From: Thermodesulfovibrionia bacterium
GTDB taxonomy: Bacteria; Nitrospirota; Thermodesulfovibrionia; UBA6902
Assembly: GCA_030646035.1 (NCBI GenBank)
Contig: JAUSMY010000030.1
Location: 46,434 to 110,433 of the forward strand
Reading direction: 5' to 3'
DNA: 64,000 nt
Shown here: one piece after another, positions 19,965 to 56,551 of the stretch
How the letters are laid out: each line of letters starts with the position of its first letter
Numbering within the stretch: position 1 is the first letter of the stretch
Translations under genes and position numbers: made by a program
Notes under the pieces: generated by a model
What the model saw: the letters and a program-made list of their open reading frames with translations, nothing else
Databases searched by the model: none
What the model was told of the DNA's origin: nothing

Positions 19965-21443
19965 TTAAGGAAATAATCTAATCTCTTTAAGCTTCTCTTT
20001 AGCCTTTTCCGCACTTCTGGTATCAGGATATTTTTCGATCAGCCATTTTAAAACTTCTTCAGCCTTCTGTTTGTTATTCAGTTTTACAAAAGCAGAACTG
20101 GCCATAAGAAGGGCATCTGGGGCCTTTTTGCCTGAGTACTCTCTTACTACCTTGTTAAATTCTGATATCGCGCTATTGTAATCACCCTTTGCATAGTATG
20201 CCTCACCTGACCAGTATAGAACGTCCTCAGAAAGGGCATGCTTTGGATATAATTTCCGGAAATCCTTAAAGCTGCTTAATGCATCATCAAATTTTCCGGT
20301 CAGAAAAACTTCAAGTCCCTGCCGGTAAAGGTCTTCAGGACTGACATTTTTCCTGATAGTTATATCATTCTGCTGCCTGCTTGCAGTATTTGCCTTTTCA
20401 GACAATTCAACAGAGGGAAGCACATTGGTCTCTTTCTTAATATTCGGGGTATAGACTTCACCTGCCGTTGTGCTGGAAGACGATACCGCTTTATTAGCGA
20501 TGGCCGATGAAGGGACAGTAGTTGACGTTGTTACATCCGGAAGATAATAATAAACCGATGCTCCGACAAGTAGAAGTGCCATAACCGCTGCGAGCCCATA
20601 ATAAATTTTGGGGGAGAGATTAATTCCTGATCCTGATGAACCGTTATTCAAATGATTAATTGCATACTTTACATGCTTGGATGTTATAGTGCTGCTCTCC
20701 TCAAGAAATGCGGACATTATGGCCCTTGATGAAACAAGGTTTATCTTCCGGGGAATTCCCTGTGAGTAAGCAAAGATAGGTTTTTTAAGGCCTTTGTCAA
20801 GCTTCAGAAAGCCCTTACCCGCTTTGATAAGCCTGTAATTTATATATTCAAGCATCTCATCACTATCGAGCGGCTTTAATTTCATGCTTACGGTTATCCT
20901 CTGCCTCAGCTGCCTGAAACTATCCTCATTCAGCATTTCATCAAGCTCCGGCTGTCCAACAAGGAGTATCTGCAATAGCTTCTCCTTCTCGGTCTCGAGG
21001 TTTGAAAGCAGCCTCAGTTCTTCAACCGTGTCGGCAGGAAGACTCTGTGCTTCATCAACTATGATTATTACCGGTATCTTTTCATACGACTTTTGGAGCA
21101 GGAAATCCCTGAACACCTTTAGTATTTCAGACTTGCCCTTGTTATCATATTTGATCTTCAGGTCATCAAGCACAGAAACGATGAACTCCTCGGGAGAGAG
21201 ACGCGGCGTAAGTATAAGCGCTATCTCAGCATTATCCTTCCACTTCTCGATAAAGATCTTTATAAGGGTGGTCTTGCCGGTGCCGGGCTCGCCTGTAATA
21301 AGACAGAAACCCTCTCTCTGCTCAATAACATAGTCGAGTGACTGCAGCGCTTCCTTATGGCACTCGGATGAGAAGAAGTAACCGGGGTCAGGGGTTAACT
21401 TGAAAGGATCCTCTTTTAATCCGAAAAACTTGAGAATATCCAT
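19965..21443 (-). CDS. ExeA/GspA/MshM-like AAA ATPase fused to a TM segment and a C-terminal TPR (YbgF-like) domain
   Basis: N-terminus FGLKEDPFKLTPDPGYFF ... ITGEPGTGKTTLI ... IIVDEAQ is typical of the ExeA family. TM segment YYGLAAVMALLLVGASVYYYL. C-terminal TPR motifs (YWSGEAYYAKGDYNSAISEF). Confidence 0.8.
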   Translation of the reverse strand: MDILKFFGLKEDPFKLTPDPGYFFSSECHKEALQSLDYVIEQREGFCLITGEPGTGKTTLIKIFIEKWKDNAEIALILTPRLSPEEFIVSVLDDLKIKYDNKGKSEILKVFRDFLLQKSYEKIPVIIIVDEAQSLPADTVEELRLLSNLETEKEKLLQILLVGQPELDEMLNEDSFRQLRQRITVSMKLKPLDSDEMLEYINYRLIKAGKGFLKLDKGLKKPIFAYSQGIPRKINLVSSRAIMSAFLEESSTITSKHVKYAINHLNNGSSGSGINLSPKIYYGLAAVMALLLVGASVYYYLPDVTTSTTVPSSAIANKAVSSSSTTAGEVYTPNIKKETNVLPSVELSEKANTASRQQNDITIRKNVSPEDLYRQGLEVFLTGKFDDALSSFKDFRKLYPKHALSEDVLYWSGEAYYAKGDYNSAISEFNKVVREYSGKKAPDALLMASSAFVKLNNKQKAEEVLKWLIEKYPDTRSAEKAKEKLKEIRLFP

Positions 21444-22660
21444 TACGCGTTGATCTCTGCGATAAGGTCGTATATAGGAAGCATAAGCCCGATGATAATA
21501 ACACCAAACATTAAGCCGATTACTCCTATAACTATGGGCTCGATCATCTTGGACATGTTAGCTGATACCTTATGAAGCTTCTTTAGATAATAATCCGAGA
21601 CATAGCCATACTGCTCATCAAGATTTCCACTTGCCTCTCCTATATCTACCATTCTGGTTACGAGAGGAGGGAATATCCATTGCTTTCTCATCGCATCCGA
21701 TATCCTGCTGCCTGTAGTAATATCCTCTCTCTCGATCTCTATAGCGCGTTTAAATACGTCATTTTCCATAAGATCACCGACAATCTCCAAAGCCCTGTCG
21801 ATTGTAATACCCGCAACGGTAAGGATTCTCATCTGCTCAGCATAAAGCGCAAGAAGTTTATTGTAAACAACGAGTTTTACAATAGGCGTCTTAAGCAAGG
21901 CAAGGTCAATGTAGTACCTGGTCTTCGGGAACTTCCTGAGCGTCTTATATGTGAAGATAATGGATATAGGGAATAGGAAGATCGGATATTTATATGCCTG
22001 AACAAACTCGCTTGTATACAAAAGTCCCCTGGTAATAGGCGGGAGTGTGACCTGCATGCTCTTGAAGACATCCATTATCTTGGGCAGAACATACAGCATC
22101 CAGAACATCATGGCGCCGAAGGTCGTTACTAACGCAAATGTCGGGTATATAAGCGCCCCCTTTATGGCTCCGGCAAGGTCCTCCATCCTCTGCAGATGGA
22201 TAGCTACATCCTCAAGGCTCTGGTCAAGACGGCCGGTCTCCTCGCCTATCATGGACAGGTGACGGAAAATATCAGGGAATATGTCGTTGTGTTTTGTTAC
22301 AGCATTGGAGAAACTGGAGCCGTGCTCAAGCATCTCAGCCATATTATCTATCTTGCTCTGGAAATACTTGTTCTCCATGCCCTCGGCGATACTGCTTAAT
22401 CCGGACATAATGGGAACACCGGCCCTGAGCATGACTGACATGTTATTGGCAAACTCGATAACATCTTCCCGCTTGATCTTCTCCCGCCTGGCAAGAAGAC
22501 CTTTGAGAGCTACAACATACTCGCTGGTCTGGTTGATATTCAGCAGATGCAGCCCTGCAGCGGATATGCTCTCAATGGCAGCCTGAAGGTTGATCTCTTC
22601 GATCATGCCCTTGATTACAGTGCCTTCCTGATCAATTGCTTTATACGAATATATCGGCAT
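21443..22660 (-). CDS. type II secretion / type IV pilus platform protein (GspF/PilC/MshG family)
   Basis: 405 aa, duplicated T2SSF-type architecture with three TM segments. Sits directly downstream of GspE-type ATPases. Confidence 0.85.
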   Translation of the reverse strand: MPIYSYKAIDQEGTVIKGMIEEINLQAAIESISAAGLHLLNINQTSEYVVALKGLLARREKIKREDVIEFANNMSVMLRAGVPIMSGLSSIAEGMENKYFQSKIDNMAEMLEHGSSFSNAVTKHNDIFPDIFRHLSMIGEETGRLDQSLEDVAIHLQRMEDLAGAIKGALIYPTFALVTTFGAMMFWMLYVLPKIMDVFKSMQVTLPPITRGLLYTSEFVQAYKYPIFLFPISIIFTYKTLRKFPKTRYYIDLALLKTPIVKLVVYNKLLALYAEQMRILTVAGITIDRALEIVGDLMENDVFKRAIEIEREDITTGSRISDAMRKQWIFPPLVTRMVDIGEASGNLDEQYGYVSDYYLKKLHKVSANMSKMIEPIVIGVIGLMFGVIIIGLMLPIYDLIAEINA

Positions 22661-24306
22661 TATCCCGCGACCCTCAAGATTTCCTCAAATGTAGTTATCC
22701 CGCTTATGGCCTTTTGTATCCCGTTGATCCTCATGGTCTTCATCCCGTTTTTAAGCGCCGCATCAAGCATCGAGTTTGCAGATGCGCCTGTATAAATAAG
22801 TTCTTTTATATGGTCATCTACGATAAATATCTCACCTACAGTAGTCCTGCCCAGATAACCCGTACCGCTGCAATCGGTACAGCCTGTTCCTTTGTAAACG
22901 GTCTTAACATCATCATAACCTATAAAACCCATTTCTTCCAACTCACCGGGTTTAAGTTGATACTCGACCTTGCATTTTGAGCATATCTTTCTTACAAGCC
23001 TCTGGCCTATTACCGCAAGTAGCGCCGAAGAGAGCAGGAAGCGGTCAACATTAAAATTAACCAGCCTCGGAATGGTGCTGACCGCGTCATTTGTATGCAA
23101 CGTGCTCAAAACAAGATGGCCGGTTATTGATGCCCTGAGCGCAATAGTGGCGGTCTCTTCATCCCTTATCTCACCAAGCAATATCACATCAGGATCCTGA
23201 CGCATAAAAGTCCTGCCTGCCGCTTCAAAACTGTAACCTGCCTTATCATTGACGCTGGTCTGCTTGACCATGCTCAGCCTGTATTCCACCGGGTCCTCTA
23301 CAGTAAGCACATTCTTCTCTATCAGGTCTATCTCCCTTAAAGCGGCATACAGCGTAGTGGTCTTACCGCTGCCGGTTGCCCCGCATATAAGCACCATTCC
23401 ATAAGGCTTTAAAAACAAGCGCCTCAGCTTATCCGTGTCTTCTTTATCAAAACCAAGTGAAGACAACCTGAGTATCGCGCCGCCGCTGCCCAGTATCCTT
23501 ATGACAAGGTTTTCGCCGTAAATCGTAGGCATTGTAGAAACACGCATATCATATCTTGAGTTAAGGAAGGTGAATGAGAAAGAGCCGTCCTGCGGCACCC
23601 TTGTTTCAGCTATATCAAGCTTAGACAATATCTTTATCCTGGAAATAATGCCGTTATGCACAATTTTAGGCAGGCAGTGCGCCTGCTGAAGAACACCGTC
23701 TATACGAAAAAAGACATGCACGGTTTCAGGAGTAGGAGTTACATGGATATCAGTACATTTTCTTCTGATGGCATCTTTAACCAGAAAGTCAGTAAGCTGA
23801 GACACCTTGGTGCCTGTAAGTTCACCTGTCTTAACACTCTCGACGATCTTTTCAATGCCCTCAAGAATGGGGTTTTCAAGAAAATAAAATGCCTTCTCAA
23901 GTGTCGCCTCCACTATAGAGCCGTCAACCATCAATATCTTAGGAGGGTTTCCCGTGATTCTTGTAGCTGCGTCAACAGCACGCAAATTCTCAGAAGCTGT
24001 GATGCCTATAGTTATCACACCATCCTCAACCTTGAGAGGCACAAAGCCGATCTTTGAGGCAAGGTCTCGGGGCACAAGGCGTAATACATCCTCAGGTATA
24101 TTGTATTGGGTAAGGTCCAGGAACGTCATTCCGGCCTGTTCAGCAAGGGTCTGGGTAATATCTTTTGAAGAGACAAAGCTCAGCTTTACGAGTATAAGAC
24201 CGATCAGATGGCCGGTTATAGACTGTTCTGCCAGTGCTATCTTTATATGTGATTCTTTAACGAGACCTTTCTGCTGTAAAAGTTCTCCAAGTCTTAATGG
24301 CGGCAT
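22660..24306 (-). CDS. GspE/PilB/MshE-family assembly ATPase, paralog 1, with MshEN-type N-terminal domain
   Basis: Walker A GATGSGKTTTLYA. Tetracysteine motif CSKC...CTDCSGTGYLGR. N-terminus RLGELLQQKGLVKESHIKIALAEQ matches the MshEN c-di-GMP-binding motif. Confidence 0.9.
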   Translation of the reverse strand: MPPLRLGELLQQKGLVKESHIKIALAEQSITGHLIGLILVKLSFVSSKDITQTLAEQAGMTFLDLTQYNIPEDVLRLVPRDLASKIGFVPLKVEDGVITIGITASENLRAVDAATRITGNPPKILMVDGSIVEATLEKAFYFLENPILEGIEKIVESVKTGELTGTKVSQLTDFLVKDAIRRKCTDIHVTPTPETVHVFFRIDGVLQQAHCLPKIVHNGIISRIKILSKLDIAETRVPQDGSFSFTFLNSRYDMRVSTMPTIYGENLVIRILGSGGAILRLSSLGFDKEDTDKLRRLFLKPYGMVLICGATGSGKTTTLYAALREIDLIEKNVLTVEDPVEYRLSMVKQTSVNDKAGYSFEAAGRTFMRQDPDVILLGEIRDEETATIALRASITGHLVLSTLHTNDAVSTIPRLVNFNVDRFLLSSALLAVIGQRLVRKICSKCKVEYQLKPGELEEMGFIGYDDVKTVYKGTGCTDCSGTGYLGRTTVGEIFIVDDHIKELIYTGASANSMLDAALKNGMKTMRINGIQKAISGITTFEEILRVAG

Positions 24307-24406: not shown

Positions 24407-26059
24407 CTAACCTGTGACCCTTAATACCTCTTCAAGAGTGGTTATACCTTCAAGAGCTTTCTTTATGCCGTTCTGTCTGATAGTCTTCATGCCTTTTCCA
24501 ACGGCCGCCTCTCTGAATGAGCTTATACTTGCGCTTGATGATATCAGTTCCCTGATATCATCATCAACCACAAGTATCTCGCCTATAGCCGTCCTTCCGA
24601 TATAGCCTGTACCGTTACATACCGGACAGCCCCTGCCTCTGTAAGTTTTTCTTACACTGCCCTCAAGGTCAGGGAAGCCCATATTTGTAAGTTCTCTGGG
24701 CTCAAAGATATGCTCTTCCTTGCAGTTCAGGCAAATCTTCCTCACAAGCCTCTGGCCTACAATCGCCAACAGGGAAGTAGCTATTGCAAATCGTTCAATA
24801 TTGAAATTAACAAGCCTTGGTATAGCGCTGGCTGCATCATCAGTATGAAGAGTGCTCAATACCAGATGTCCTGTGACAGAGGCTCCCAAAACTATCCTGG
24901 CATTTTCATCATCAGTTATCTCGCCAACAAGTATAACATCAGGGTCATGCCTCATAAAACTCTTTCCGGCTATAGAAAAAGTGTATCCGACTTTATCAGA
25001 TACCCCTGTCTGTTTTATCATACTCAGCCTGGACTCGACCGGGTCTTCAACAGTTATAACACTCTTCTCTATTAAATCAATGTCCCTTAGAGCCGCAAAG
25101 AGCGTTGTGGTCTTGCCGGCTCCTGTGGGTCCGACTATCAATATCATCCCGCTTGGTTTTGAGAAGAGGTGTTTTATTAAATTTACATCTTCTTCATCAA
25201 AACCAAGATTGCGTGTCCTGAACAGAGAGGATGAACTGCCTATGATCTTAATAACAATATCCTCACCGTTTATCGTGGGAAGTGTTGATACACGCATCTC
25301 ATAGGCCCTTTTAAGAAAAGCAAAAGAGAAAACACCGTCCTGGGGCATCCGCTGCTCTGCAATATCAAGTTTTGAGAGCACCTTTATTCTGGATACTATC
25401 CCTATAAGCAGGTTCTTCGGCAGACAATGTCCCTGATAGAGAACCCCGTCTATACGGTAATTTACATGGAGTGTCTTTGAAGTAGGAGAAAAGTGAATAT
25501 CGCTGGCATTTCTCCGTATAGCATCCTGGAGAAGATAGTCACAAAGAGATGCTATATTCGGACCCGCAGGAAGAGCCTCATTTTTAAATATATTAATCAG
25601 CCTTTCTATGCCCTGAAGTATCGGGTTATCAAGAAAGTAATATGCTTTTTCAAGTGTCTCCTGAAAGAGGTCCGTGTCCACCAAATAGACCTTTGGCGGT
25701 TTGTTGCCGATCTTTGCAGCCTGGTCAATAGCCCGCAGGTTCTCTGCATTAGTGATCCCTATCGTAAGAAGGCCATCTTCTATATTAAGAGGGAGAAAGC
25801 CCATATTTTGAGACATATCGCGAGATATGACACGCAGAACCTTCTCAGGTATGTTGTATCCTGTAATATCAAGAAAAGGGATGCCCGCCTGCTCGGCAAG
25901 GCATCGGGCTATATCTGAAGAAGAAACAAATCCGAGCCCTATGATAGCCTCTCCTAGCCGCTCGCCTGTTATAGCCTGCTCGGCTAAAGCTATCTTGAAC
26001 TGAGAGTCTTTTAGAAGGCCTTTCTGCTGTAATAGTTCACCAAGTTTTAATGGAGGCAT
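24407..26059 (-). CDS. GspE/PilB/MshE-family assembly ATPase, paralog 2, with MshEN-type N-terminal domain
   Basis: Collinear with paralog 1 over its full length. Walker A GPTGAGKTTTLFA. Tetracysteine motif CLNC...CPVCNGTGYIGR. Both N-terminal motifs look intact (KLGELLQQKGLL...ALAEQ and RLGEAIIGLGFV...LAEQ). Confidence 0.9.
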   Translation of the reverse strand: MPPLKLGELLQQKGLLKDSQFKIALAEQAITGERLGEAIIGLGFVSSSDIARCLAEQAGIPFLDITGYNIPEKVLRVISRDMSQNMGFLPLNIEDGLLTIGITNAENLRAIDQAAKIGNKPPKVYLVDTDLFQETLEKAYYFLDNPILQGIERLINIFKNEALPAGPNIASLCDYLLQDAIRRNASDIHFSPTSKTLHVNYRIDGVLYQGHCLPKNLLIGIVSRIKVLSKLDIAEQRMPQDGVFSFAFLKRAYEMRVSTLPTINGEDIVIKIIGSSSSLFRTRNLGFDEEDVNLIKHLFSKPSGMILIVGPTGAGKTTTLFAALRDIDLIEKSVITVEDPVESRLSMIKQTGVSDKVGYTFSIAGKSFMRHDPDVILVGEITDDENARIVLGASVTGHLVLSTLHTDDAASAIPRLVNFNIERFAIATSLLAIVGQRLVRKICLNCKEEHIFEPRELTNMGFPDLEGSVRKTYRGRGCPVCNGTGYIGRTAIGEILVVDDDIRELISSSASISSFREAAVGKGMKTIRQNGIKKALEGITTLEEVLRVTG

Positions 26060-26071: not shown

Positions 26072-27664
26072 TTATAAACCTACCTTATCCACAGTCGCTT
26101 TAAGAAGTATCACAAGTTCCTTGCTCTGATGGGTCTTTGCATGCTGTTTAAATAAATAGCCTAAATAAGGGATATCTCCGAGAAATGGCACCTGCTTATC
26201 CTCCACGCCCTCGGTTTTATCTATATGCCCGCCGAGCACTATCATCTCGCCATCCCTGACCTTGACAACTGTGCTCAGCTCCTTAAGGTCGATAATTGGT
26301 AAAGATATTGAATATCCAGTCTTAGTCACATCGCCAAAAGGATGTTCTTTTAAATCTACAAGATCTGAAACTATCGGAGTTATAGTCAATGTCACCTCAC
26401 CATTCTCATTGATATTAGGGACTATTCCGAGCATAACACCGGAGAGCACACTCTTTGTCGTTACATCATAAGTCGTTGCAGGATTGGGATTATCAGTGGT
26501 AGCTTGTTCTACGGTTGAATCAACTTCACTGACATAATCGGTCTTCCTTCCGACATTCAGAAGGGCTGTCTGTCCATTCATTATGCCAAGCCTCGGATTT
26601 GAGAGCACTGTTGTATCACCCTGCTCATCAAGTGCGCTTATAATAGCTGAGAAATCATTTCCTAATGTAGCGACAAAGAAACCAGTATCTTGAACTGCCG
26701 TATTTATACCAAAATCTAAAGGATCTATTGTGCCAGAAACCAATTGGTTATCTTGGTTTATGGAACCTGCAACAACCTGACCGACTCCCTTAAAGTTATC
26801 AAGAAATGCCCAGTTAATCCCGTATTTAAGATTATCCGTTAAGGTAACCTCCACTATCCTTGCCTCAACAAGAACACGCCTGCTCAGGACCTCTCTGAGC
26901 TTAGTGAGATAATTATCGACCTTTATCATATTCTTCTTTGTGGCTGTTACAAGTATCGTCCCTGACATTCTATTTATATCGATAGTTCCGGTGCCGACAA
27001 CACCTTTAAGAGTTGCCTCCAGAGAGTCCCATAGGTTTAATGATGCACTGTCCGCCTTGATACTTTGTTTAACACCGCCCTTTATATTACTTATGTCATC
27101 GGTCGCGCCGAAGAGGTCGCCGCCAACATCTGATGAATATTCCTGTGCGATACTGGGATGGCCGAATTCAAACATCCTTGTAGCCATAACTCTCACTATG
27201 AGAACATTCCCTTCAAGATCATAAAAATAATCAATTGATGAGAAGATGATATCAAGAGCCTCATCAGCGGCAACTTCCTTCAGTGTTATGGTCATAGGCA
27301 GTTCAGGGTTTACGCCGGTCTCCATAATGATATTCAGCCCGGTGTTTTCACCAACTGCGAAGAGAACATCTTTAAGCGGCGCATTTCTTACTGAAATGGA
27401 AATAATTCTCGTCTTAAGCGGTAAAAGTTCCTCAGTAACCGGGGTGAATGCAAGGCTTGATCTTGAGATTTTGTTCTCAAACTTTATTGTGTCAGCCTTT
27501 TCAGCACGCACTTCAGGGACTTCTGAAACAATAACGTCTGCTCCTTCATCAGATAACACATTATTCTGCAATGCCGATGCCTCAACAGCAAAGACTAATA
27601 AAAACAATGTCAAAAACATGGAAAAAAGCCGGTACATAATTTTCACCCTTTTTATTGTTTTCAT
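26072..27664 (-). CDS. secretin (GspD/PilQ/MshL family)
   Basis: C-terminal secretin core motifs are present (VLSNPRLGIMNGQTA, VPFLGDIPYLGYLFK). Signal peptide present. The start at 27664 forms an ATGA overlap with the upstream stop codon. Confidence 0.85.
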   Translation of the reverse strand: MKTIKRVKIMYRLFSMFLTLFLLVFAVEASALQNNVLSDEGADVIVSEVPEVRAEKADTIKFENKISRSSLAFTPVTEELLPLKTRIISISVRNAPLKDVLFAVGENTGLNIIMETGVNPELPMTITLKEVAADEALDIIFSSIDYFYDLEGNVLIVRVMATRMFEFGHPSIAQEYSSDVGGDLFGATDDISNIKGGVKQSIKADSASLNLWDSLEATLKGVVGTGTIDINRMSGTILVTATKKNMIKVDNYLTKLREVLSRRVLVEARIVEVTLTDNLKYGINWAFLDNFKGVGQVVAGSINQDNQLVSGTIDPLDFGINTAVQDTGFFVATLGNDFSAIISALDEQGDTTVLSNPRLGIMNGQTALLNVGRKTDYVSEVDSTVEQATTDNPNPATTYDVTTKSVLSGVMLGIVPNINENGEVTLTITPIVSDLVDLKEHPFGDVTKTGYSISLPIIDLKELSTVVKVRDGEMIVLGGHIDKTEGVEDKQVPFLGDIPYLGYLFKQHAKTHQSKELVILLKATVDKVGL

Positions 27665-28143
27665 AGTAGATTTACCCATTTTGTCCCCTTAGTATTAGTC
27701 TTGGTTTTGCCCTTCTCCCCAGGTGATAAAGCATATTCAACTAAGATCCTTGCGGGCTCGATCTGAATTATTGTTTGATTGGCGACAGTACTACCTTCTC
27801 TTACAACCTCGCCGTTTACAATTGCCATGTTCCCCTTATCACTGACAATGATCATCGTAACAATAAGCTGAACCTGCTCCGGCACCTTCTTCTTGTCCGC
27901 TTCAGATGGACCAGCTTCCCTGTAACCCATGACTTTCTCGATCAATGTGGGCATCTCCAAAGTCTTGTCTGTAACTTCCTTTCTTTCAGGAAGGCTCACA
28001 TTTTTGACCTCAAACCCGAGTATCTCCTTCTCTTCAGGAGTCATCTTATGTTCAACATTAATATTATACGCAGCATAACCCGCGGCAATTATTAAAATGA
28101 AAGGCAAAAGAGCCAGAAGCTTTAATTTCAAGGTGAATCCCAT
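27661..28143 (-). CDS. single-pass membrane protein, PilP/MshK-position accessory protein
   Basis: N-terminal TM segment (LKLLALLPFILIIAAGYAAY) and a small beta-rich C-terminal region. Sits between the PilO-like gene and the secretin. ATG 28143 has a GGGAG SD. The call rests on position only. Confidence 0.5.
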   Translation of the reverse strand: MGFTLKLKLLALLPFILIIAAGYAAYNINVEHKMTPEEKEILGFEVKNVSLPERKEVTDKTLEMPTLIEKVMGYREAGPSEADKKKVPEQVQLIVTMIIVSDKGNMAIVNGEVVREGSTVANQTIIQIEPARILVEYALSPGEKGKTKTNTKGTKWVNLL

Positions 28144-28144
28144 A

Positions 28145-28699
28145 TTATTCACTCCCACCCGAACGCTGACTTAACCTTCCGGCAGGCAGCCTAATCGAAC
28201 CTTTAATATTGCAGGTTATCTCAGAGTTGTCTTTTGATCTCGCGACCTCTATGCCGTCAAAAATAAAATAAGGAAACTTTAAGGACTGGATATACGCTAT
28301 GCTCTCTGTCATGACCGTATAGTCATCGACAGGAAAATGGATCTCCAAAGGCATGGAAATTTCACCGCCTTCTTCCTTGAAGTCATCTATCTTCACCTCT
28401 GCATATTTCAGTTTGGATTTTATATTGCCGATCGAGAGAAGAATAAATTCACGGTTCGTCTTGGAATAATAGTCTGCAGGTATCATTGCGTCTATCTGGG
28501 CCATGACCTTTTCAAGGTCAGCCACAGAGTCACTCATCTTCTTATAGTTTTCCTTTTGCTTCTCAAACAGTTTTACAGTCCCCACAAGGCTCTCACCATA
28601 TCTGCCGCCGAATATGATCACGAAAAGAATAACGGCGAATACTATTCCTCCGATGAGATGGCGCATTACCGCCTTTTTTAATTCATTATAAAACATCAT
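28145..28699 (-). CDS. single-pass membrane protein, PilO/MshJ-like
   Basis: N-terminal TM segment followed by coiled coil (KLFEKQKENYKKMSDSVADLEKVMAQ) and then an alpha/beta domain. ATGA overlap with the upstream gene. Confidence 0.55.
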   Translation of the reverse strand: MMFYNELKKAVMRHLIGGIVFAVILFVIIFGGRYGESLVGTVKLFEKQKENYKKMSDSVADLEKVMAQIDAMIPADYYSKTNREFILLSIGNIKSKLKYAEVKIDDFKEEGGEISMPLEIHFPVDDYTVMTESIAYIQSLKFPYFIFDGIEVARSKDNSEITCNIKGSIRLPAGRLSQRSGGSE

Positions 28700-50138: not shown

Positions 50139-50768
50139 CTATTTTGAACGGCCCTTAAAATAGTATACGAGCGCCACGCTTTTGTTTGATGCCCACTCAA
50201 CTACATCGCCAAACTCCAGATGGGTGACGACCCTGTTATCTCCTGAGCCATTGACAGTGATGGAAGACAGGGCCTTTACCTCACCGGCTTTGCCGTCTGC
50301 TTCGCCGTCTATCACCGTATCAAATGACTGAACATACTTCAGCTCATTGCTGGCAAAGGTTTTTGTACAGGCATTATCAGCGCATATAACAAGTATGTTT
50401 CTAGGCCTGCCGGTATTGCCGGTATTGCCGTCATTGCCGTAATAGACCCAGAACCTGAGACTGCCGACCGCCATCGGGTTTGACGGAGGGTTGTTGATGA
50501 AATCCGCCTGCTGTATCAATACAGTTCCCGGTGACGGGGATTCTTCATCTCCTATTATAAGATTCGAATTCGTATCACCCGGAAGCAGGCCTTTAATATT
50601 GTAGTAATCTTTTGCGCTCTCTCTCCATTTAAGAATGCCCTTCTCAAACTTCTTAAGCTTGGCATCTTCTATCATCTCACATCCCTTTAGCAGGGAAAAT
50701 GAGAGGATAACTGTGATCGCAATGACTATCGCAAGCTCGACCAGCCCGAATCCCTTTTGGTCTTTCAT
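50139..50768 (-). CDS. type IV pilin-like protein (209 aa), member of a four-paralog family
   Basis: MKDQKG/FGLVELAIVIAITVIL; ATG 50768 has an AAGGA SD. Shares with its paralogs PGDxxxNxIIGDE, VICADNAC, KYVQSFDTVIDG and ALVYYF. Confidence 0.8.
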   Translation of the reverse strand: MKDQKGFGLVELAIVIAITVILSFSLLKGCEMIEDAKLKKFEKGILKWRESAKDYYNIKGLLPGDTNSNLIIGDEESPSPGTVLIQQADFINNPPSNPMAVGSLRFWVYYGNDGNTGNTGRPRNILVICADNACTKTFASNELKYVQSFDTVIDGEADGKAGEVKALSSITVNGSGDNRVVTHLEFGDVVEWASNKSVALVYYFKGRSK

Positions 50769-50790: not shown

Positions 50791-50819
50791 AAAAAAATAG
50801 GGGCGATCCATCGCCCCTA
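50791..50819 (-). terminator. rho-independent terminator after pilin gene 50852-51505
   Basis: Stem taggggcga / tcgccccta with loop tcca. A T7 run follows on the minus strand. Confidence 0.75.
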
Positions 50820-50851
50820 TTAAAATAGCATATATTAAACTAATGTATTAA

Positions 50852-51505
50852 TTAAATCACACCCTTGTCTACATAAAAGACCAACGCCTTTGTCACGCCT
50901 GTAGCCCAGGCGCTGCCGGGGTCAGTAACAGCTATGACGGTCCTGTCATTACTGTCCCCGCCAAGAGGATCCAGTATAGGTGGAACAGATGCAGCCCTTG
51001 CAAAACCTTTAGTTCCGTCTATCGTGCCGTCAGTAACCGTATCAATAAACTCAACATACTTCAAGTTCCCTGCGCCATGGTCGTCCTCAAATGGAACTGT
51101 ACAATCATTGTTTGCACAGATGACCATCACATTTCTCTTTGGTTCAGAGCCATTATATCCCCAGTAGATCCAGAACTGCAGGCTGCCGGTCTTAACCGGG
51201 TTCTCCTTTGGAGGGTTTATGAGATTCGCGCCCTGTATGACTGTTGACCCTGGTACGCGCAATGCGGTTGCCTCATCACCTATAATGCCGTTTCTGTCTT
51301 GATCACCGGGGAATATGCCCTTTCTGTCCATGAAATACCAGGCTGATGTCTTCCAGTGCCTCACTTCAGTCTCAAACTTCTTCATTCGGGAGGACTCCAC
51401 TATGTCCTGACCCTTTAGCACGATGCTTATAATTATGCCGATAATTATAAGGACTATGGCAAGCTCTATAAGTGTGAAGCCTTTTTCTTCTTTCAGTATC
51501 TTCAT
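50852..51505 (-). CDS. type IV pilin-like protein (217 aa), paralog family member
   Basis: MKILKEEKG/FTLIELAIVLIIIGIIISIV. Shared motifs FPGDQDRNGIIGDE, VICANNDC, KYVEFIDTVTDG and ALVFYV. Has its own promoter-like and terminator elements. Confidence 0.85.
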   Translation of the reverse strand: MKILKEEKGFTLIELAIVLIIIGIIISIVLKGQDIVESSRMKKFETEVRHWKTSAWYFMDRKGIFPGDQDRNGIIGDEATALRVPGSTVIQGANLINPPKENPVKTGSLQFWIYWGYNGSEPKRNVMVICANNDCTVPFEDDHGAGNLKYVEFIDTVTDGTIDGTKGFARAASVPPILDPLGGDSNDRTVIAVTDPGSAWATGVTKALVFYVDKGVI

Positions 51506-51545
51506 AATATTGACAGATCCAAGTGTATCTATTGAATAATTATAG

Positions 51546-51573
51546 ATTATACATTAGAAATAAAATAAATCAA
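51546..51573 (-). promoter_or_regulatory. putative sigma-70 promoter of pilin gene 50852-51505
   Basis: Minus strand TTGATT (51573-51568), 16-nt spacer, TATAAT (51551-51546). Confidence 0.45.
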
Positions 51574-51584: not shown

Positions 51585-51620
51585 AAATATAAATAGGGAG
51601 GGCGGTTTATCGCCCTCCCT
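51585..51620 (-). terminator. rho-independent terminator after pilin gene 51655-52302
   Basis: Stem agggagggcg / cgccctccct (51595-51604 / 51611-51620). Followed on the minus strand by the T-rich atttatattta. Confidence 0.65.
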
Positions 51621-51654
51621 ATCATTTAGACTTCATGCAAACTTCTTAAACTGA

Positions 51655-52302
51655 TCAATTACCTCTGTCAAAGAAATAGACTAAACCGTGAGAGGCAGCA
51701 CCGCAAACTGTGAAGTTGGCTCCGCCATTTACATCTGTTACCATATATTCGTCACCGCCTGTGGCAGCCGGAACAGTAGTAATAGTATCAGCACAGACCA
51801 CGCTTCCATTTGCGCCGTTAGATACACCGTCAATGACAGTGTCAAACGACTCAACATATTTAATGAGATCGGCAGTAAGTGCGTCTGTAGTACAGTCAGC
51901 ACTCCCGCAGATCGCCATGACGTTCTTTGGAGCAGTTAGATCTCCGTCATTGCCGAACTGTACATAGAAATTCAAACTGCCGATCGTGACAGGGTTTGCA
52001 TCAGGCTCATTTATGAAACCTGCATCCCTTATGTAATCAGCTGCTGAATTTTCTGTTCCGATGTCGCCGATAATACCGTTACCATCAGTATCGCCGGGGA
52101 ATGTGCCTTTTCTGTCAACATACGTCCATACAGCGGTCTCCCACTCTCTCATTGAGTTGTCAAACCTCTTGATACGCGCTGATTCGATAAGATCCTGTCC
52201 CTTTAATACGGCGCCGATGATGATGCCGATGATAACAAGGACGATCGCAAGTTCGATCAGTGTGAAGCCTTTTTGCTCTCTCATCTTCTGAAATGTTTTC
52301 AT
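51655..52302 (-). CDS. type IV pilin-like protein (215 aa), paralog family member, candidate major subunit
   Basis: MKTFQKMREQKG/FTLIELAIVLVIIGIIIGAVL. AAGGAGG SD 10 nt upstream of ATG 52302. Shared motifs FPGDTDGNGIIGD, AICGSADC, KYVESFDTVIDG and GLVYFF. Flanked by a promoter-like element and a strong terminator. Confidence 0.85.
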   Translation of the reverse strand: MKTFQKMREQKGFTLIELAIVLVIIGIIIGAVLKGQDLIESARIKRFDNSMREWETAVWTYVDRKGTFPGDTDGNGIIGDIGTENSAADYIRDAGFINEPDANPVTIGSLNFYVQFGNDGDLTAPKNVMAICGSADCTTDALTADLIKYVESFDTVIDGVSNGANGSVVCADTITTVPAATGGDEYMVTDVNGGANFTVCGAASHGLVYFFDRGN

Positions 52303-52434
52303 GTTCTTTGCTCCTCCTTTTTGATTTTCCATGCCCTTTATGGTTTCATGGTTGTTAAAGTTTGTAAGTCAAATTATAACCGGTAAGCCTCTCAATCCCT
52401 CCTTTGTAGAAATTTTAAATCCTCACCTGACTTA

Positions 52435-52473
52435 ACTTTAAAACAAGTACGCTGACCTGTCAACTGACTAAGA
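52435..52473 (-). promoter_or_regulatory. putative promoter carrying the recurrent motif (minus strand TCTTAGTCAGTTGACA)
   Basis: TTGACA (52463-52458), 17-nt spacer, TAAAGT (52440-52435). The upstream half-motif CTTAGTCAG abuts the -35 element. Confidence 0.45.
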
Positions 52474-52526: not shown

Positions 52527-53177
52527 CTATAACGCATAATATATCTCTACTATCGTTTCGGGATCCAGGCTGTAATCAGCACTGCCTCGGACACTGCCTG
52601 AATTATAAATACCGTCATCAAACTTGTTATCTATTACTTCAGCAACCTCGCTTCTTAAGTTTGTAACACCTATATAATTTCTGACCCCGCTTATGCCGAA
52701 ATCAGTTGCAGCGATTCCGTCATCCGCACTATTCCATAGCCAGATGATTCCGCCAAGCGTATGAGTAGGCAGAGCAGACGCACCTGTAGCAAGCGGATCA
52801 CCCTGCACCATAAGCGCCGCCCTTAATTCCTGCCACGCCTCGTTGCACTCAGTTCCATCAGCAGGGCCTGTGTTACATAATGTTCCGCCGATCAGAGCGT
52901 TCCCAGCATTTACAGTATCAGTGAGCGTAACAAGAGTGGACCATCTTCCGCTTGCAAACTTGTCATCTCCCGGATAAGCGCTATAGAGGTCATAGTAAGT
53001 ATTATAGGCAGAAACGATAGTCTCGACATCTCCTATGACCCTCTTGATCCTCGCATTCTCAAGCACAGCCTTTCCCTTGACAAGCGCAGCGATAAGCAGG
53101 CCTATTATCACCAGGACTATTGAAAGCTCAACCAGTGAAAATCCCTGTTTTTTATTCAGTTTCAGTATGGTTAACAT
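52527..53177 (-). CDS. type IV pilin (216 aa), distinct from the four-paralog family
   Basis: MLTILKLNKKQG/FSLVELSIVLVIIGLLIAALV. AAGGA SD upstream of ATG 53177. The 23-codon N-terminal extension in the ORF track lies over the promoter and is rejected. Confidence 0.85.
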   Translation of the reverse strand: MLTILKLNKKQGFSLVELSIVLVIIGLLIAALVKGKAVLENARIKRVIGDVETIVSAYNTYYDLYSAYPGDDKFASGRWSTLVTLTDTVNAGNALIGGTLCNTGPADGTECNEAWQELRAALMVQGDPLATGASALPTHTLGGIIWLWNSADDGIAATDFGISGVRNYIGVTNLRSEVAEVIDNKFDDGIYNSGSVRGSADYSLDPETIVEIYYAL

Positions 53178-53260: not shown

Positions 53261-53308
53261 AACAAATAACTTATGCAAATAAAACAATGGGTTATTGGTA
53301 TGGAGAGA

Positions 53309-53938
53309 TCACTTGCCGGAATCTTCAAAATAATAAACAGCTCCTACGAATGATTCTCCTTTCCAGTCTGCTGATGTCATCTCCTCCCTGACATCTGTCA
53401 CTGCGGCTCCCTCAGACACAAGGGTAACACCTGCGGCTCCCTTTAAATTTCCCTCTGAAGCGATAGCATCTCCATCCATTATCTTGTCTATTTTTTCCAT
53501 CATTGCAGCCTCGTCCTTGTTAAGTGTCCTATCACATTTTGCAGAAGGGCATATGACAAATACATTCTTCTTCCTGTTTTTAATGGTGTTGAATCCTATA
53601 GTTATATAAAATGTGGAATCTCCTTCCTCGATCTTCTTCATGGATTCAGAGATAACTTTGGACCCTATAAGCTCCATTACAGGTGAGTCAGGATTGCCTT
53701 CATCAGCGATAATGCCGTTGCCGTTTTTATCACCGGCAAGTTTATCGCGCTTAAAATAATAGGCAAGCTCGGCTGACTCCCATTTCCTGCACCATTGCAC
53801 AACATTCTTTGCATGCATATCAGCCAGGAACTTGCCGCCGGCACAGAAAGCAAAGATGGCAAGACATACCACTGTAATCGAAATAACAAGAAATATTATG
53901 CTAAACCCTGATTCTTTCCTGTTCCTGCTACATATCAT
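53309..53938 (-). CDS. pilin-like protein (209 aa) with non-canonical N-terminus, paralog family member
   Basis: The body is paralogous to 50139-52302 (GDKNGNGIIADE, VICPSAKC, EKIDKIMDG, GAVYYFE). The N-terminus is MICSRNRKESG/FSIIFLVISITVV, with Phe instead of Glu at +5. Confidence 0.7.
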   Translation of the reverse strand: MICSRNRKESGFSIIFLVISITVVCLAIFAFCAGGKFLADMHAKNVVQWCRKWESAELAYYFKRDKLAGDKNGNGIIADEGNPDSPVMELIGSKVISESMKKIEEGDSTFYITIGFNTIKNRKKNVFVICPSAKCDRTLNKDEAAMMEKIDKIMDGDAIASEGNLKGAAGVTLVSEGAAVTDVREEMTSADWKGESFVGAVYYFEDSGK

Positions 53939-54007: not shown

Positions 54008-54045
54008 ATGATATACGATGTATCGGCTCAGGTCAACTGTCTAAA
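54008..54045 (-). promoter_or_regulatory. putative promoter carrying the recurrent motif (minus strand TTTAGACAGTTGACC), overlapping the kinase stop codon
   Basis: TTGACC (54036-54031), 17-nt spacer, TATCAT (54013-54008). TTAGACAG lies immediately upstream of the -35 element. Confidence 0.45.
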
Positions 54046-55952
54046 TTATTTACATGTGAATGGAAAAGATCATGCTGGCCGACAGGGAGCTTTATAATAA
54101 AACATACGCCTGACGGCGAGTTTTGAACATCCACGGTGCCGTGCTGTGAGACTATAAACTCTTTTGTCTGATAAAGCCCTACCCCTATGCCGCCTTTCTT
54201 GGTCGTAAAGAAAGGTTCAAATATCCTTGCGGCAACCTCTTCCGGCATAGGAATGCCGTTATCACATATTGTAAGGACATAGTTCTCATCAACAATGCCG
54301 CCTTGTATGCTTATCTCAAGCTGGTCTGCCTCAAAAGATTTGTCATGCGCGTTCCTAAGGATATTCTCAATAGCGACCATTACTGCCGCCCTGTCGGCAT
54401 ATATCCTGTCATTACCGTCAAACCTTGTAATGAAGATATGTTTTTTATGAAAGAGCTTGAGGATCTCATCAATTACCTCTTTCAATGAAAATATAGTAGG
54501 GTTGTTTCCCTCTCTCAATATCCCGATGGTATTCAGTATCTTCTCAGCCCTTTTTACCAGATGGGGCACGGTGTGGCGGAAATCATTCAGAAACTCCTCA
54601 GCCTCCGAGGGCTGCACCCTTGATATGTTCTTCTCAAGCATATTCAGCGTATGGCATATGTTCTTCAGGTCGTGTATGAGAAAGAGCTTAAGCCTCTCGG
54701 CTATCTCCAGCTTCTCCCTGAAGACTTTGCTGCGGGTCAGGTGCATGTCATATGTCATCCGGAATATAAGTTCAGCAATAAGCCTGAGATTCATCCTGTC
54801 GTCTTCATCAAAGATCACTTTGCTGTAAAAAACTAACTGGATCTTTGCGTCGCTTGTCTCATCAGCAAACCTGAGAGGAAAGCTCCCCTGACCATTCTCG
54901 CCTATCTTTTCTTCAATATTATTGTCTCCAGCTGAAAACGTGAATGTTATACAGGAAAATGGATAGCTCTCAAAGAAGTAATTCATCACCTCTCTAATAA
55001 AAAAGTTCATGCTTTCATTGCTCTTCTGGTGCAGGGAGAATATTCTGGTAAGTATCTCAGGGAGATTATATCTGCTGACATATAAGTGGCGTAAGAGAAA
55101 GAACTTGACCTTAAGCCTTGCCTCCCGGCTGAAAAATAGCGCGCCTGAAATTATAATGAATGCAGATACCAGGAATATCCTGACATAAAACAGGAATGCA
55201 TCCTGCGGGGAGTAGCGGTCAAGATAAACAAGGATAACGCCGTAGATAATAAGGCTGATGAGAAGCAGGGCCTTCCATAACATATCCGCGGATGCCCTGA
55301 CCCTGAAGATAAAAAGTTCCCCTTTTAAAAGCACCCCGTAACCGGCGGCTATAACAAGAAGCGAAGACAAAGGAGAGATATAAGAATAGTTCCAGAGAAA
55401 GAACGGGTTCATAGACAATGCAAGGGCGATGACCTTGATATACAGCACATGAAGAAAGACCTTGTCATACACCAGCAGATTCTTTCTCTGGCGGACCAGA
55501 CTGAGGTTGATCAGAGAGAAAAACGCAATTCCGACTCCCGCAGTAATGGCAATAGAGTGATATATCTCAGGCAGCATAAAGACAGATACGAGAATAGAAG
55601 ATAAAGCCAAATGCCCGAAAGACGCATATTTGATAACAGAATTTATCCCTTCGCGGACTGATGAGTAACTGGAGCGCCTCGTATCCGGAGAGAGCAAAGA
55701 ATCCTTTACCAAAAAAGACCTGTTTTTTGATGTGACCCTCATAATTGAGAGTATAAAGAGGAAGAGAAAGAGCAGCGCAAGATATGCAAAGATATAATAC
55801 AGATTGATCATGAAGTAATAGATAACAATAAGAAGAGCGATATCAGCGGTGAAAAAAATTATTGCAGCCCTGTTCTTCCTGTAAGTCCGTGTTATGATCA
55901 GCGAAATCAGGCCGACTGCGCAGGCGATCGTAAACAGGATGAGGAGTTTCAT
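54033..55952 (-). CDS. polytopic sensor histidine kinase
   Basis: About 280 aa of TM segments, an H-box FLIHDLKNICHTL, an N-box ENILRNAHDK, and G-boxes CDNGIPMP and GIGVGLYQTKEF. Confidence 0.85.
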   Translation of the reverse strand: MKLLILFTIACAVGLISLIITRTYRKNRAAIIFFTADIALLIVIYYFMINLYYIFAYLALLFLFLFILSIMRVTSKNRSFLVKDSLLSPDTRRSSYSSVREGINSVIKYASFGHLALSSILVSVFMLPEIYHSIAITAGVGIAFFSLINLSLVRQRKNLLVYDKVFLHVLYIKVIALALSMNPFFLWNYSYISPLSSLLVIAAGYGVLLKGELFIFRVRASADMLWKALLLISLIIYGVILVYLDRYSPQDAFLFYVRIFLVSAFIIISGALFFSREARLKVKFFLLRHLYVSRYNLPEILTRIFSLHQKSNESMNFFIREVMNYFFESYPFSCITFTFSAGDNNIEEKIGENGQGSFPLRFADETSDAKIQLVFYSKVIFDEDDRMNLRLIAELIFRMTYDMHLTRSKVFREKLEIAERLKLFLIHDLKNICHTLNMLEKNISRVQPSEAEEFLNDFRHTVPHLVKRAEKILNTIGILREGNNPTIFSLKEVIDEILKLFHKKHIFITRFDGNDRIYADRAAVMVAIENILRNAHDKSFEADQLEISIQGGIVDENYVLTICDNGIPMPEEVAARIFEPFFTTKKGGIGVGLYQTKEFIVSQHGTVDVQNSPSGVCFIIKLPVGQHDLFHSHVNNLDS

Positions 55953-56551
55953 TAATCCTTGGTTCTCAGATTATACTTATTGATATAGTAATAGACGGAT
56001 GTCCTTCTGAGGCCGAGAAGCTTGGCGGTCTTTGATACATTGTTTCCCGTATTCTCCAGGGCTTCTTGGATGATATGCTTCTTCATGTCCTCTTTAAGGG
56101 TCTCGAAGCCCTCATTGAGGCTCTGCGGGTTTATCTTGATCGACTTTTCTTCAGCCGGTATATCAGTCTGTATATCAGCAAAAAACTCGGCTCTTTTCAG
56201 AGAGTCCACAAGCTTGCCCTCTCCAACCGGTTTCATGAGATAATCGAACGCACCCTGGGATATCGCCTTTACCGCAACATTCCTCTCCTTCTGGCCTGTC
56301 AGAACAACTATCTTCATTCCGGGCTTCTCAGCAAGCATATCATTCAAAAGTTTGAGGCCTACCTCAGGAGTATTCTCATATGGGGGAAGCCCAAGGTCCA
56401 GCAGGACTATATCAATATTATTATCCCGGAAAAAGGCGAGGGCATCTTCAGCAGTATGCGCAAGTACAGACACATATTTTTTCGGCAAAAACCATTTGAG
56501 CTGTGTAGCAAGAGCAACATCATCATCAACAATTAAGATCTTTACAGACAT
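55952..56551 (-). CDS. response regulator: receiver domain plus Fis-type HTH, without a sigma-54 AAA+ module
   Basis: MSVKILIVDDD ... DIVLLDLGLPP ... KIVVLTG, then C-terminal GNNVSKTAKLLGLRRTSVYYYINKY. Only about 200 aa, so there is no room for an AAA+ domain. ATG 56551 has a GAGG SD. Confidence 0.85.
   Translation of the reverse strand: MSVKILIVDDDVALATQLKWFLPKKYVSVLAHTAEDALAFFRDNNIDIVLLDLGLPPYENTPEVGLKLLNDMLAEKPGMKIVVLTGQKERNVAVKAISQGAFDYLMKPVGEGKLVDSLKRAEFFADIQTDIPAEEKSIKINPQSLNEGFETLKEDMKKHIIQEALENTGNNVSKTAKLLGLRRTSVYYYINKYNLRTKD

Follow-up and report, generated by a model that had tools for sequence, protein, structure and literature searches.

Type IV filaments of the mannose-sensitive haemagglutinin (MSH) class are encoded in a single locus, always without a prepilin peptidase, and the TXSScan model of Denise et al. 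2019 treats mshA, mshE and mshG, together with mshL and mshM, as mandatory (PMC6668835). The class has been recorded in Gammaproteobacteria, Chrysiogenetes and Epsilonproteobacteria, and Nitrospirota were not reported among its hosts in the 2019 survey (PMC6668835). The canonical tip set of the MSHA pilus consists of MshD, MshO and MshP plus MshQ (PMC13533445). Here, we analyse a window of 64,000 nt (the whole stretch of DNA under study) from an uncultured Nitrospirota bacterium, which carries a pilus locus on its minus strand between positions 19965 and 56569. In our view, the locus rather probably codes for a type IV filament machine of the MSH class, enlarged within its lineage. To the core, the window's clade has added a second paralog of MshE, an array of five short pilins, and three PglL-like ligases along with five modular pilins, and the locus is accreted rather than an indivisible supercluster.

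The acquired parts also have described counterparts. Modular pilins are a catalogued class that act as tip adhesins, and PF05345 is among the domains most commonly grafted onto them (PMC8179133). PglL genes beside their pilin substrates are known, with a pair of neighbouring PglL homologs in Polaromonas sp. JS666 (PMC3643930), pglL has been found upstream of the Vibrio msh operon (PMC6901666), and TfpW is a GT-C enzyme dedicated to pilin glycosylation (10.1101/2020.04.19.049825). An earlier note on this DNA had placed both the giant pilins and the ligases outside textbook pilus layouts, and had remarked on the missing peptidase. Set against the literature, none of these three features is exceptional: absence of the peptidase is the rule for MSH loci (PMC6668835), ligase genes next to pilins and next to msh operons have been published (PMC3643930, PMC6901666), and the giant pilins fall into the modular class (PMC8179133), with a core whose family has 469 cluster representatives.

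Gene families were assigned by Pfam and NCBIfam scans of the translations of open reading frames (ORFs). In the ORF listing of the window, 26 ORFs follow one another without a break on the minus strand between 19965 and 56569, which bears out the claim of the earlier note that all genes from 56551 down to 19965 lie on this strand; the ATG of the response regulator is at 56551, as it had said. Its range of 19965-56551 left out one conserved gene of the system, at 18951-19955 on the plus strand. Most families in its gene list were recovered by the Pfam and NCBIfam scans, except that one of its two GT-C proteins has no family match and that an ORF of 82 codons had been overlooked. The scan of the larger ORFs over the entire 64 kb of the window detected neither a prepilin peptidase (peptidase A24) nor a gene of the PilT type, in agreement with its statement that the locus has neither. 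The assembly machinery comprises the following features; TPR denotes tetratricopeptide repeats and TM a transmembrane segment.

18951-19955, plus strand: convergent TPR protein of 334 aa (TPR matches), just beyond the range of the earlier note
19965-21443, minus strand: ExeA/MshM-type AAA ATPase, followed by a TM helix and a periplasmic YbgF-like TPR domain (AAA_22, 2.5e-25)
21443-22660, minus strand: GspF/PilC-type inner-membrane platform protein with two T2SSF domains (2.8e-50)
22660-24306, minus strand: ATPase MshE_b (T2SSE and MshEN)
24407-26059, minus strand: ATPase MshE_a (T2SSE and MshEN)
26072-27679, minus strand: outer-membrane secretin of the MshL type (TIGR02519 pilus_MshL, 267.1 against a cut-off of 250.2; Pfam Secretin, 3.4e-37)
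27661-28158, minus strand: bitopic protein of 165 aa with a GspB/PilP-like C-terminus (weak T2SSB/CdsD_C)
28145-28699, minus strand: bitopic protein of 184 aa (position, size, single N-terminal TM helix)
28696-30045, minus strand: PilM-PilN fusion of 449 aa, MshI/GspL-like (AlphaFold2 and Foldseek)

Three hallmarks of the MSH class were found in this set: an MshL secretin, MshE with its MshEN domain, and a single locus without a peptidase. The secretin passes the MshL model and fails that of GspD (160 against a cut-off of 351), and it also scores under the cut-off of the PilQ model. NF053729, whose cut-off is 38, detects the cyclic di-GMP (c-di-GMP) motif in both MshE proteins, with scores of 51.8 and 47.7. 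The two share 61% identity, have identical catalytic motifs, and find their nearest PDB relatives in PilF, PilB and GspE, rather than in PilT. The matches to MshG, MshM and MshA are generic. Only general GspF/PilC models of NCBIfam recognize the platform protein, all under their equivalog cut-offs and GspF best, and the top NCBIfam match of the MshM-type protein is TIGR03015 (XrtA/PEP-CTERM-associated ATPase), at 262, below the cut-off of 324. The same protein has a TM helix at residues 280-298 and matches TIGR02795 over residues 369-485, and is thus read as an MshM-MshN-like fusion. Pilins with a class III signal are present, and the match to the MshA structure 9lab is confined to the N-terminal helix (E 0.036).

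The three small genes upstream of the secretin (27661-30045) overlap at their start and stop codons. The family of the 449-aa protein carries no Pfam annotation; the alignment of its 31 relatives was fed to AlphaFold2, and the resulting model, with a predicted local distance difference test score (pLDDT) of 83.7, shows an actin-like domain, one TM helix (290-308), a coiled coil and a ferredoxin-like domain. Foldseek matched it to PilM (5eox, E 5e-15), to FtsA and to the cytoplasmic domains of EpsL/GspL (7e-10). These matches support the reading as a PilM-PilN fusion, and thereby the label 'PilMN-like' given in the earlier note. For the 184-aa protein, the label 'PilO-like' agrees with position, size and the one N-terminal TM helix, and is unverified beyond these, because PDB profile and Pfam searches with all orthologs returned only noise. 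The proposed 'PilP-like' character of the 165-aa protein fits the weak T2SSB/CdsD_C signals in 12 of 17 family members (the window protein and 11 of 16 orthologs), which agree with a putative GspB/PilP-type secretin-contacting domain; a PDB profile search with the family returned nothing. Overall, the MshL model, the c-di-GMP motifs of MshE, the ExeA/MshM-TPR protein and the PilM-PilN fusion sustain the resemblance of the core to Vibrio MSHA that the earlier note had pointed out.

The core recurs elsewhere without its surroundings in the window. One genome per species was scanned with the 449-aa family, and the window proteins were then compared by BLASTP with the ORFs of the 39 loci obtained (referred to below by numbers with the prefix L). 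All 39 are from metagenome-assembled genomes (MAGs) of Nitrospirota (Thermodesulfovibrionales, Dissulfurispiraceae) or Thermodesulfobacteriota. The order of this compact, translationally coupled core of seven genes is invariant: the 449-, 184- and 165-aa proteins, the secretin, one MshE, GspF and the MshM/N fusion, with start and stop codons that frequently overlap. The fusion is kept in most of the loci that extend that far. Full-length orthologs of the convergent TPR gene occur in 23 related loci, and in 22 of these the gene lies directly downstream of the MshM/N fusion in convergent orientation. Beside it, nine related loci (L049 at 17945-18511 on the minus strand, L013, L020, L023, L025, L029, L030, L032 and L041) have a small gene with a lytic-transglycosylase-like (SLT-like) motif, which the window lacks.

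Most related loci have a single ATPase and, in the flanks examined, one to three pilin genes near the core. Typically, these are one short pilin of approximately 200 aa and one of approximately 315 aa, which corresponds to the first 320 residues of the long pilins in the window; the latter type adjoins the core in 11 related loci. Pilins like the second short pilin of the window (sP2) lie upstream of the core in L016, L024, L028 and L031. No MshQ/PilY1-like adhesins were found near these basal loci, where the big neighbours are housekeeping genes or sensor kinases.

The second MshE, the pilin arrays and the ligase arrays are confined to the window's small clade. GCA_016207885.1 has the same full expanded order, at 64-97% identity per protein, so that the gene order described in the earlier note recurs in a sister MAG. 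GCA_016213935.1 has a ligase, three long pilins and two MshE genes, and its machine follows straight after the pilins, without the block of SpeE-like and GT-C genes that lies between them in the window; GCA_003358065.1 has four ligases, followed by long pilins. Duplication of MshE is seen only in loci with expansions of giant pilins and ligases (L010, L012), and every single-copy MshE ortholog elsewhere matches MshE_b best. The one coherent 36-kb unit proposed in the earlier note therefore dissolves into a core kept in 39 species and pilin arrays, ligase arrays and a second ATPase found in one clade only.

The acquired long pilins are the following.

36335-37855, minus strand: long pilin gP5, 506 aa
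38201-39505, minus strand: long pilin gP4, 434 aa
39906-41867, minus strand: long pilin gP3, ~653 aa; position +5 is Q, and the protein contains two Cys-rich motifs of the MopE type as well as an (NE)n tract
41917-43194, minus strand: long pilin gP2, 425 aa
43269-44516, minus strand: long pilin gP1, 415 aa

The start of gP3 is probably the ATG at 41867 rather than the TTG at 41984. All five proteins share a core of approximately 320 aa with conserved cysteines, at 31-36% identity to gP5, the reference of the alignment, and differ in their C-termini. The cleavage site G|(F/I)xxx(E/Q) is present in all five and N_methyl is matched by three. The core consists of the alpha1 helix, a pilin head and an immunoglobulin (Ig)-like sandwich, to which variable C-terminal modules are added; these include the MopE-type Cys-rich motifs, the (NE)n tract, and low-complexity tails that are rich in N/G/S and in D. 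In the AlphaFold2 model of gP1 (pLDDT 82.4), the alpha1 helix (12-63) and pilin head are followed by the Ig-like sandwich (198-321) and a small C-terminal beta domain, that is, a class III signal and pilin module precede an extra folded module. Foldseek matched this model to Ig-like modules of adhesins and glycosidases at ~1e-4, and the long pilins match PF05345 weakly, below threshold (E 0.004-0.007).

An exhaustive profile search assigned 469 cluster representatives to the pilin + Ig core family at E <= 1e-30, most of them 300-350 aa long and covering the core. This overturned the impression of a tiny giant-pilin family given by a word-indexed search, which had returned 21 relatives. To our knowledge, the family has no characterised member. 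The long proteins are thus modular pilins as defined by Raynaud et al. 2021. Separately, six giant proteins of 3,400-4,900 aa (P0177, P0190, P0203, P0250, P0302 and P0310) contain 25-47 repeats that match positions 275-342 of the long-pilin profile. These positions are within or adjoin the Ig-like module, which is therefore common to the long pilins and very large repeat proteins.

Loss of Glu5 marks tip-located subunits such as GspK and PilX. In the five loci examined, which come from four genomes, members of the gP3 orthogroup all have another residue in its place (Q, Q, Y, F or H). Three loci retain the order gP1-gP2-gP3, whereas L006 shows a partial rearrangement. Within gP3, a perfect (CATTCT)14.7 repeat at 41336-41423 encodes the (NE)n tract; because the hexanucleotide unit is in frame, slippage would alter the length of the tract and not switch the gene off. 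In GCA_016207885.1 (L001, JACQZE010000003) there is also a satellite trio of gP1-, gP2- and gP3-like genes at 10001-14067 and 18869-21067, far from the main locus, with a TMEM260/PMT_2-type GT-C gene approximately 5 kb downstream on the other strand.

The five short pilins are paralogs of approximately 210 aa that were aligned together.

50139-50768, minus strand: short pilin sP5 (N_methyl, 2.1e-5; aligns with the other short pilins)
50796-51573, minus strand: short pilin sP4, coding sequence 50852-51505 (N_methyl, 1.8e-6), with a promoter-like site at 51573-51546 and a terminator hairpin of 11 pairs at 50821-50796
51592-52463, minus strand: short pilin sP3, coding sequence 51655-52332 or 52302 (N_methyl, 1.6e-8), with a promoter-like site at 52463-52435 and a terminator hairpin of 13 pairs, eight of them G-C, at 51623-51592
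52527-53177, minus strand: short pilin sP2, of the divergent type that adjoins the machine in basal loci (N_methyl, 5.3e-7)
53309-53938, minus strand: short pilin sP1x, without an N_methyl match, aligning with the other short pilins; site G|FSIIF, with F instead of E at +5

The F at +5 of sP1x is shared by its L003 ortholog, and the absence of Glu5 makes the protein a candidate filament-capping or initiating subunit. Among the pilins of the window, only sP3 and sP4 are bounded by a sigma-70-like promoter on one side and a strong terminator hairpin on the other. Their identities to the L003 orthologs are 64% and 67%, against 84-92% for their neighbours. Own promoters and terminators and rapid divergence are typical of exposed major pilins, and sP3 and/or sP4 are candidates for the major pilin. 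No near-identical DNA repeats were found among the pilin paralogs that would indicate gene conversion or silent cassettes.

The ligase genes lie between the two pilin arrays.

44699-46495, minus strand: PglL-like ligase 3 (Wzy_C and Wzy_C_2; no PglL_A match, G-Q-K-N kept)
46559-48349, minus strand: PglL-like ligase 2 (Wzy_C and Wzy_C_2; PglL_A 28.6, above the cut-off of 25)
48351-50120, minus strand: PglL-like ligase 1 (Wzy_C and Wzy_C_2; PglL_A 23.8, just under the cut-off of 25)

Each enzyme has 10-11 TM segments, and direct reading of the translations finds the Q-x-N and H-P-H-N/S motifs in all three. Wzy_C together with a PglL_A motif, with the Q-x-N loop that separates PglL from WaaL, was found in one of the three; their nearest PDB relative is the WaaL-type ligase 7tpg. 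A ligase fragment follows a pilin of the sP3 type in the distant locus L023, an arrangement that supports a functional tie between these pilins and PglL-like enzymes. Three or four tandem ligase paralogs are unusual, yet this is a difference of degree.

Two regulatory genes open the series upstream of the pilins, and one small ORF lies within the long-pilin array.

39559-39807, minus strand: conserved ORF of 82 codons with a GTG start, between gP3 and gP4; hydrophobic product with a basic C-terminus
54033-55952, minus strand: polytopic sensor histidine kinase with ~10 TM segments (HATPase_c, 3.7e-18)
55952-56551, minus strand: response regulator with a receiver domain and a Fis-type helix-turn-helix, without a sigma-54 AAA+ domain (Response_reg, 1.6e-20; HTH_8, 1.3e-10); ATG at 56551

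The top NCBIfam match of the regulator is PEP_resp_reg, far under the cut-off, and the C-terminal core of the kinase is PrsK-like, with a score under the PrsK cut-off. The stop codon of the kinase gene overlaps the boundary of the regulator gene, and the L003 ortholog of the kinase is 91% identical. The small ORF has orthologs at the same site in L003 (14920-15168) and beside pilins in L006 (7641-7892). Promoters and terminators were scanned for as consensus matches, and the best sigma-70-like match of the locus (11/12, at 30212-30184) falls in the following region.

30046-30257, minus strand: AT-rich intergenic region of 212 bp (GC 23%), upstream of the machinery genes

This site and those around sP3 and sP4 suggest that the locus is probably transcribed as several units, a further point at which the single coherent locus of the earlier note gives way. 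No c-di-GMP or other riboswitch was found upstream of the pilin genes; the search of the whole window gave a tRNA only.

We propose that a prepilin peptidase encoded elsewhere processes the ten prepilins, and that binding of c-di-GMP at the MshEN domains activates the ATPases, which would power polymerisation on the GspF platform, with the fibre leaving via the secretin. The fibre body would consist of sP3 and/or sP4, an assignment made because of their own promoter-like sites, strong terminator hairpins and fastest divergence between sister genomes. The long pilins may be low-abundance subunits whose Ig-like modules and variable C-termini are exposed for adhesion. At the tip, gP3, which lacks Glu5, and possibly sP1x would prime assembly, in a role like that of GspK, PilX and MshP, or of CofB and TcpB; by analogy with the last two in type IVb pili, we infer that the long pilins may take over the priming and adhesin role. 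The three PglL-like enzymes would O-glycosylate the pilins in the periplasm, and the upstream two-component system is predicted to govern pilin expression.

Several points weigh against this interpretation. The organisms are all represented by uncultured MAGs, and expression, filament and glycosylation are predicted from genes alone. Membership of the MSH class leans on one equivalog model passed barely over its cut-off, plus domain content. The canonical MshD/O/P and MshQ tip set is absent and the basal loci have one to three pilins in the flanks examined, so the analogy to a tip complex is one that we infer. By sequence, PglL-like proteins are not separable with certainty from O-antigen ligases and polymerases, and the promoter and terminator matches exceed the totals expected from shuffled sequence only modestly. 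A last point is the SpeE-like/GT-C block between the pilins and the machinery, which is absent from a sister genome, and whose relatives outside the clade lack nearby pilus genes in three of the four cases examined.

30258-31793, minus strand: PMT_2-type GT-C glycosyltransferase (PMT_2 score 40.4, cut-off 26.1); 11 TM segments are predicted, the first of them followed by D-x-D-E
31827-33338, minus strand: polytopic membrane protein of 503 aa, without family assignment
33395-36220, minus strand: fusion of a polytopic membrane domain (~16 TM segments), Spermine_synth (35.4 against a cut-off of 22.9) and TPR (TPR matches)

The first of these bears out one of the two GT-C proteins listed in the earlier note. 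The second was rejected as a GT-C protein: no Pfam, NCBIfam or PDB match was found for it, and pairwise comparison showed no similarity to the neighbouring PMT_2 protein. Although the fusion passes the Pfam model, it is not recognized as a true SpeE, with scores of 32-94 for TIGR00417, PRK00811 and PRK03612 against cut-offs of 250-472. Its glycine-rich loop reads G-L-G-S-G-A; the signature of canonical spermidine synthases for binding decarboxylated S-adenosylmethionine is G-G-G-D-G. Strong homologs of the family number more than 200 and are spread over many phyla. Outside the clade, the closest ones share approximately 50% identity (one is annotated as Fidelibacterota) and have a DNA ligase/PAP2 pair on one side and ABC-transporter genes on the other, and a relative in Gallionella sits among glycolysis genes; three of the four outside contexts examined are without pilin or pilus-machinery genes nearby. 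The idea of a pilus-specific family was consequently rejected. In the Blackallbacteria metagenome contig L008 (8001-17939), a SpeE-fold/TPR homolog is followed approximately 5 kb downstream by two N_methyl genes, after a two-component system.

The GT-C and 503-aa proteins are both conserved in L010 and absent from L012, and the SpeE-like fusion is absent from L005/L012. Absence from a sister genome, and the occurrence of the family in non-pilus contexts elsewhere, are the grounds on which the block is regarded as a late insertion. Its status as an integral part of the locus, as seen by the earlier note, is thus lost with GCA_016213935.1 and the mostly non-pilus contexts of the family; its tie to the pilus is by position only, and unproven. 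In the weakest step of our mechanism, the SpeE-fold/TPR protein and the two adjacent membrane proteins would be a later insertion that may add an envelope or pilin modification.

The same evidence leads to the alternative that fares best, which we judge possible but on the unlikely side: that the locus is a patchwork, in which the pilins and core machine form one system, whereas general glycan or lipid modification of the envelope is the task of the SpeE-fold/TPR protein, of both membrane proteins and possibly of the ligases, which only happen to have inserted between pilin genes and machine. The sister genome in which the machine comes straight after the giant pilins (L005/L012), the wide spread of the SpeE-like family outside pilus loci, and the strong promoter-like site that separates the block from the machine all agree with it, as does the fact that Wzy_C proteins serve as O-antigen ligases too. 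Against this, the block is on the same strand with tight spacing (gaps of 33-114 bp) and is kept in two genomes, the PglL_A motif occurs in the ligases, a ligase lies beside an sP3-type pilin in a distant locus, and TfpW is a precedent for a GT-C enzyme dedicated to pilin glycosylation (10.1101/2020.04.19.049825).

The duplicated ATPase bears on a second and more doubtful alternative, according to which one envelope machine builds two alternative fibres, one of short pilins and one mostly of Ig-domain long pilins, each with its own ATPase; or one of the ATPases now retracts the fibre. That the duplication accompanies the giant-pilin and ligase expansions (L010, L012) is in line with this proposal, and BLASTP shows MshE_a to be the faster-evolving copy, with 66-70% identity between genomes against 85-97% for MshE_b. 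There are two subunits without Glu5, one in each pilin class, no PilT was found among the larger ORFs scanned in the window, and a gP-type pilin of approximately 315 aa adjoins the core in 11 related loci. However, both ATPases keep identical catalytic and c-di-GMP motifs and resemble PilB/GspE rather than PilT, and strong terminator hairpins are found at sP3 and sP4 only.

We think it very unlikely that the pilin + Ig proteins are the main structural subunit, in which case they would exceed in size all major type IV pilins known so far (315 to 650+ aa), in a fibre sheathed in Ig-like and variable modules, heavily glycosylated by the three-ligase set and built with two specialised c-di-GMP-gated ATPases, to which the SpeE-fold/GT-C proteins would add a previously unknown pilin modification. 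Equally improbable is type II secretion system (T2SS)-like secretion or surface display, with the short pilins as a periplasmic pseudopilus and the long pilin-like proteins as exported or displayed cargo: the GspL-like PilM-PilN fusion, the ExeA/GspA-like ATPase, the GspB-like signals in the 165-aa protein, the lack of a retraction ATPase and the GspF model as best NCBIfam match of the platform protein point that way, but the secretin passes MshL (267 against 250) and fails GspD (160 against 351), the ATPases bear the MshEN c-di-GMP domain typical of MshE, GspC, GspM and GspI/J/K have no family match, GspH and GspG have short N-terminal matches far under cut-off, and a pilin head and a full class III signal peptide are present in the long proteins.

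The enlarged MSH-class machine is flanked in the window by housekeeping genes for chorismate synthase, shikimate kinase/dehydroquinate (DHQ) synthase, an ABC-F protein and hydrogenase subunits, and base composition shows no clear sign of a foreign island inside the locus. Elsewhere in the window, a low-GC island (32-34% against ~45% around it) on the minus strand at approximately 8000-12000 encodes a 731-aa ORF without a Pfam match, a CBM9 protein, a hexapeptide transferase and a NagA-like amidohydrolase. On the plus strand at 4506-7250, a formate-dehydrogenase-like molybdopterin subunit is split by an in-frame TGA (5622-5624) in the motif C-A-R-V-*-H-A-P-T-V; as this is the classic selenocysteine site of FdhA, the ORFs 4506-5624 and 5694-7250 are read as one selenoprotein gene. 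Also on the plus strand, a tandem repeat at 57034-57341 (57 bp in 4.2 copies, alternatively scored as 116 bp in 2.1) begins within the 3′ end of tRNA-Val(CAC) and extends through the gap as far as the ABC-F gene, and may represent the remnant of an attachment (att) site or an array like repetitive extragenic palindromes (REP).

Taken together, our analysis would broaden the MSH class of type IV filaments to include Nitrospirota and Thermodesulfobacteriota. It also defines a compact, recognisable subtype, in which MshM and MshN are fused, a TPR gene lies in convergent orientation, and a pilin + Ig subunit takes the place of the MshD/O/P/Q tip set. The window's clade provides a natural case of a small pilus machine elaborated by duplication of pilins, ligases and motor ATPase. 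Should the ligases (three) and the modular pilins (five) prove to be matched pairs, the locus would be useful for the study of acceptor specificity in O-oligosaccharyltransferases and of adhesion in anaerobic subsurface bacteria. The current understanding of type IV filaments is not overturned by these results.

Like GspA/GspB (ExeA/ExeB) of the T2SS, the window has a cytoplasmic AAA ATPase with one TM helix and a periplasmic domain, and a small bitopic partner with GspB-like signals; like GspL, it has an actin-like cytoplasmic domain fused to a PilN-like periplasmic domain. Unlike in GspA, the periplasmic domain is TPR and not peptidoglycan-binding, and the other T2SS parts have no match or sub-threshold N-terminal matches.

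Similarly, the long pilins resemble the modular pilins PilB and PilC of Streptococcus sanguinis, CofB of enterotoxigenic Escherichia coli, TcpB of Vibrio cholerae and GspK in their class III signal and pilin module with grafted beta-sandwich or adhesin modules, and gP3 resembles GspK and PilX in its lack of Glu5. They differ from known modular pilins in being five tandem paralogs with a common pilin + Ig core. As with PglL of Neisseria and Acinetobacter and TfpO (PilO) of Pseudomonas aeruginosa, Wzy_C enzymes with PglL_A lie beside pilin genes in the same orientation, and as with TfpW of P. aeruginosa, a GT-C enzyme lies within the pilin locus. In contrast to these systems, the ligases are three tandem paralogs (four in L006) between two pilin arrays, and the GT-C protein does not detectably resemble any characterised enzyme beyond its PMT_2 domain.

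The closest described system is MSHA of V. cholerae (mshHIJKLMNEGF / mshBACDOPQ). Both are single loci without a peptidase, with an MshL secretin, MshE bearing MshEN, and a platform protein (MshG in Vibrio, matched by generic GspF/PilC models in the window); the AAA ATPase-TPR protein of the window would supply the ExeA-like MshM and TPR MshN functions; an MshI-like fusion of PilM and PilN comes before two small bitopic proteins in both; and pglL adjoins the Vibrio msh operon as well (PMC6901666). Unlike the Vibrio locus, the window has no family match to MshD/O/P or MshQ, its MshM- and MshN-like parts form one fusion at the end of the gene order, a convergent TPR gene is present in addition, there are two MshE proteins, and the pilins number five short and five modular long ones, in a host whose phylum, Nitrospirota, sets it apart from the MSH hosts of the 2019 survey.

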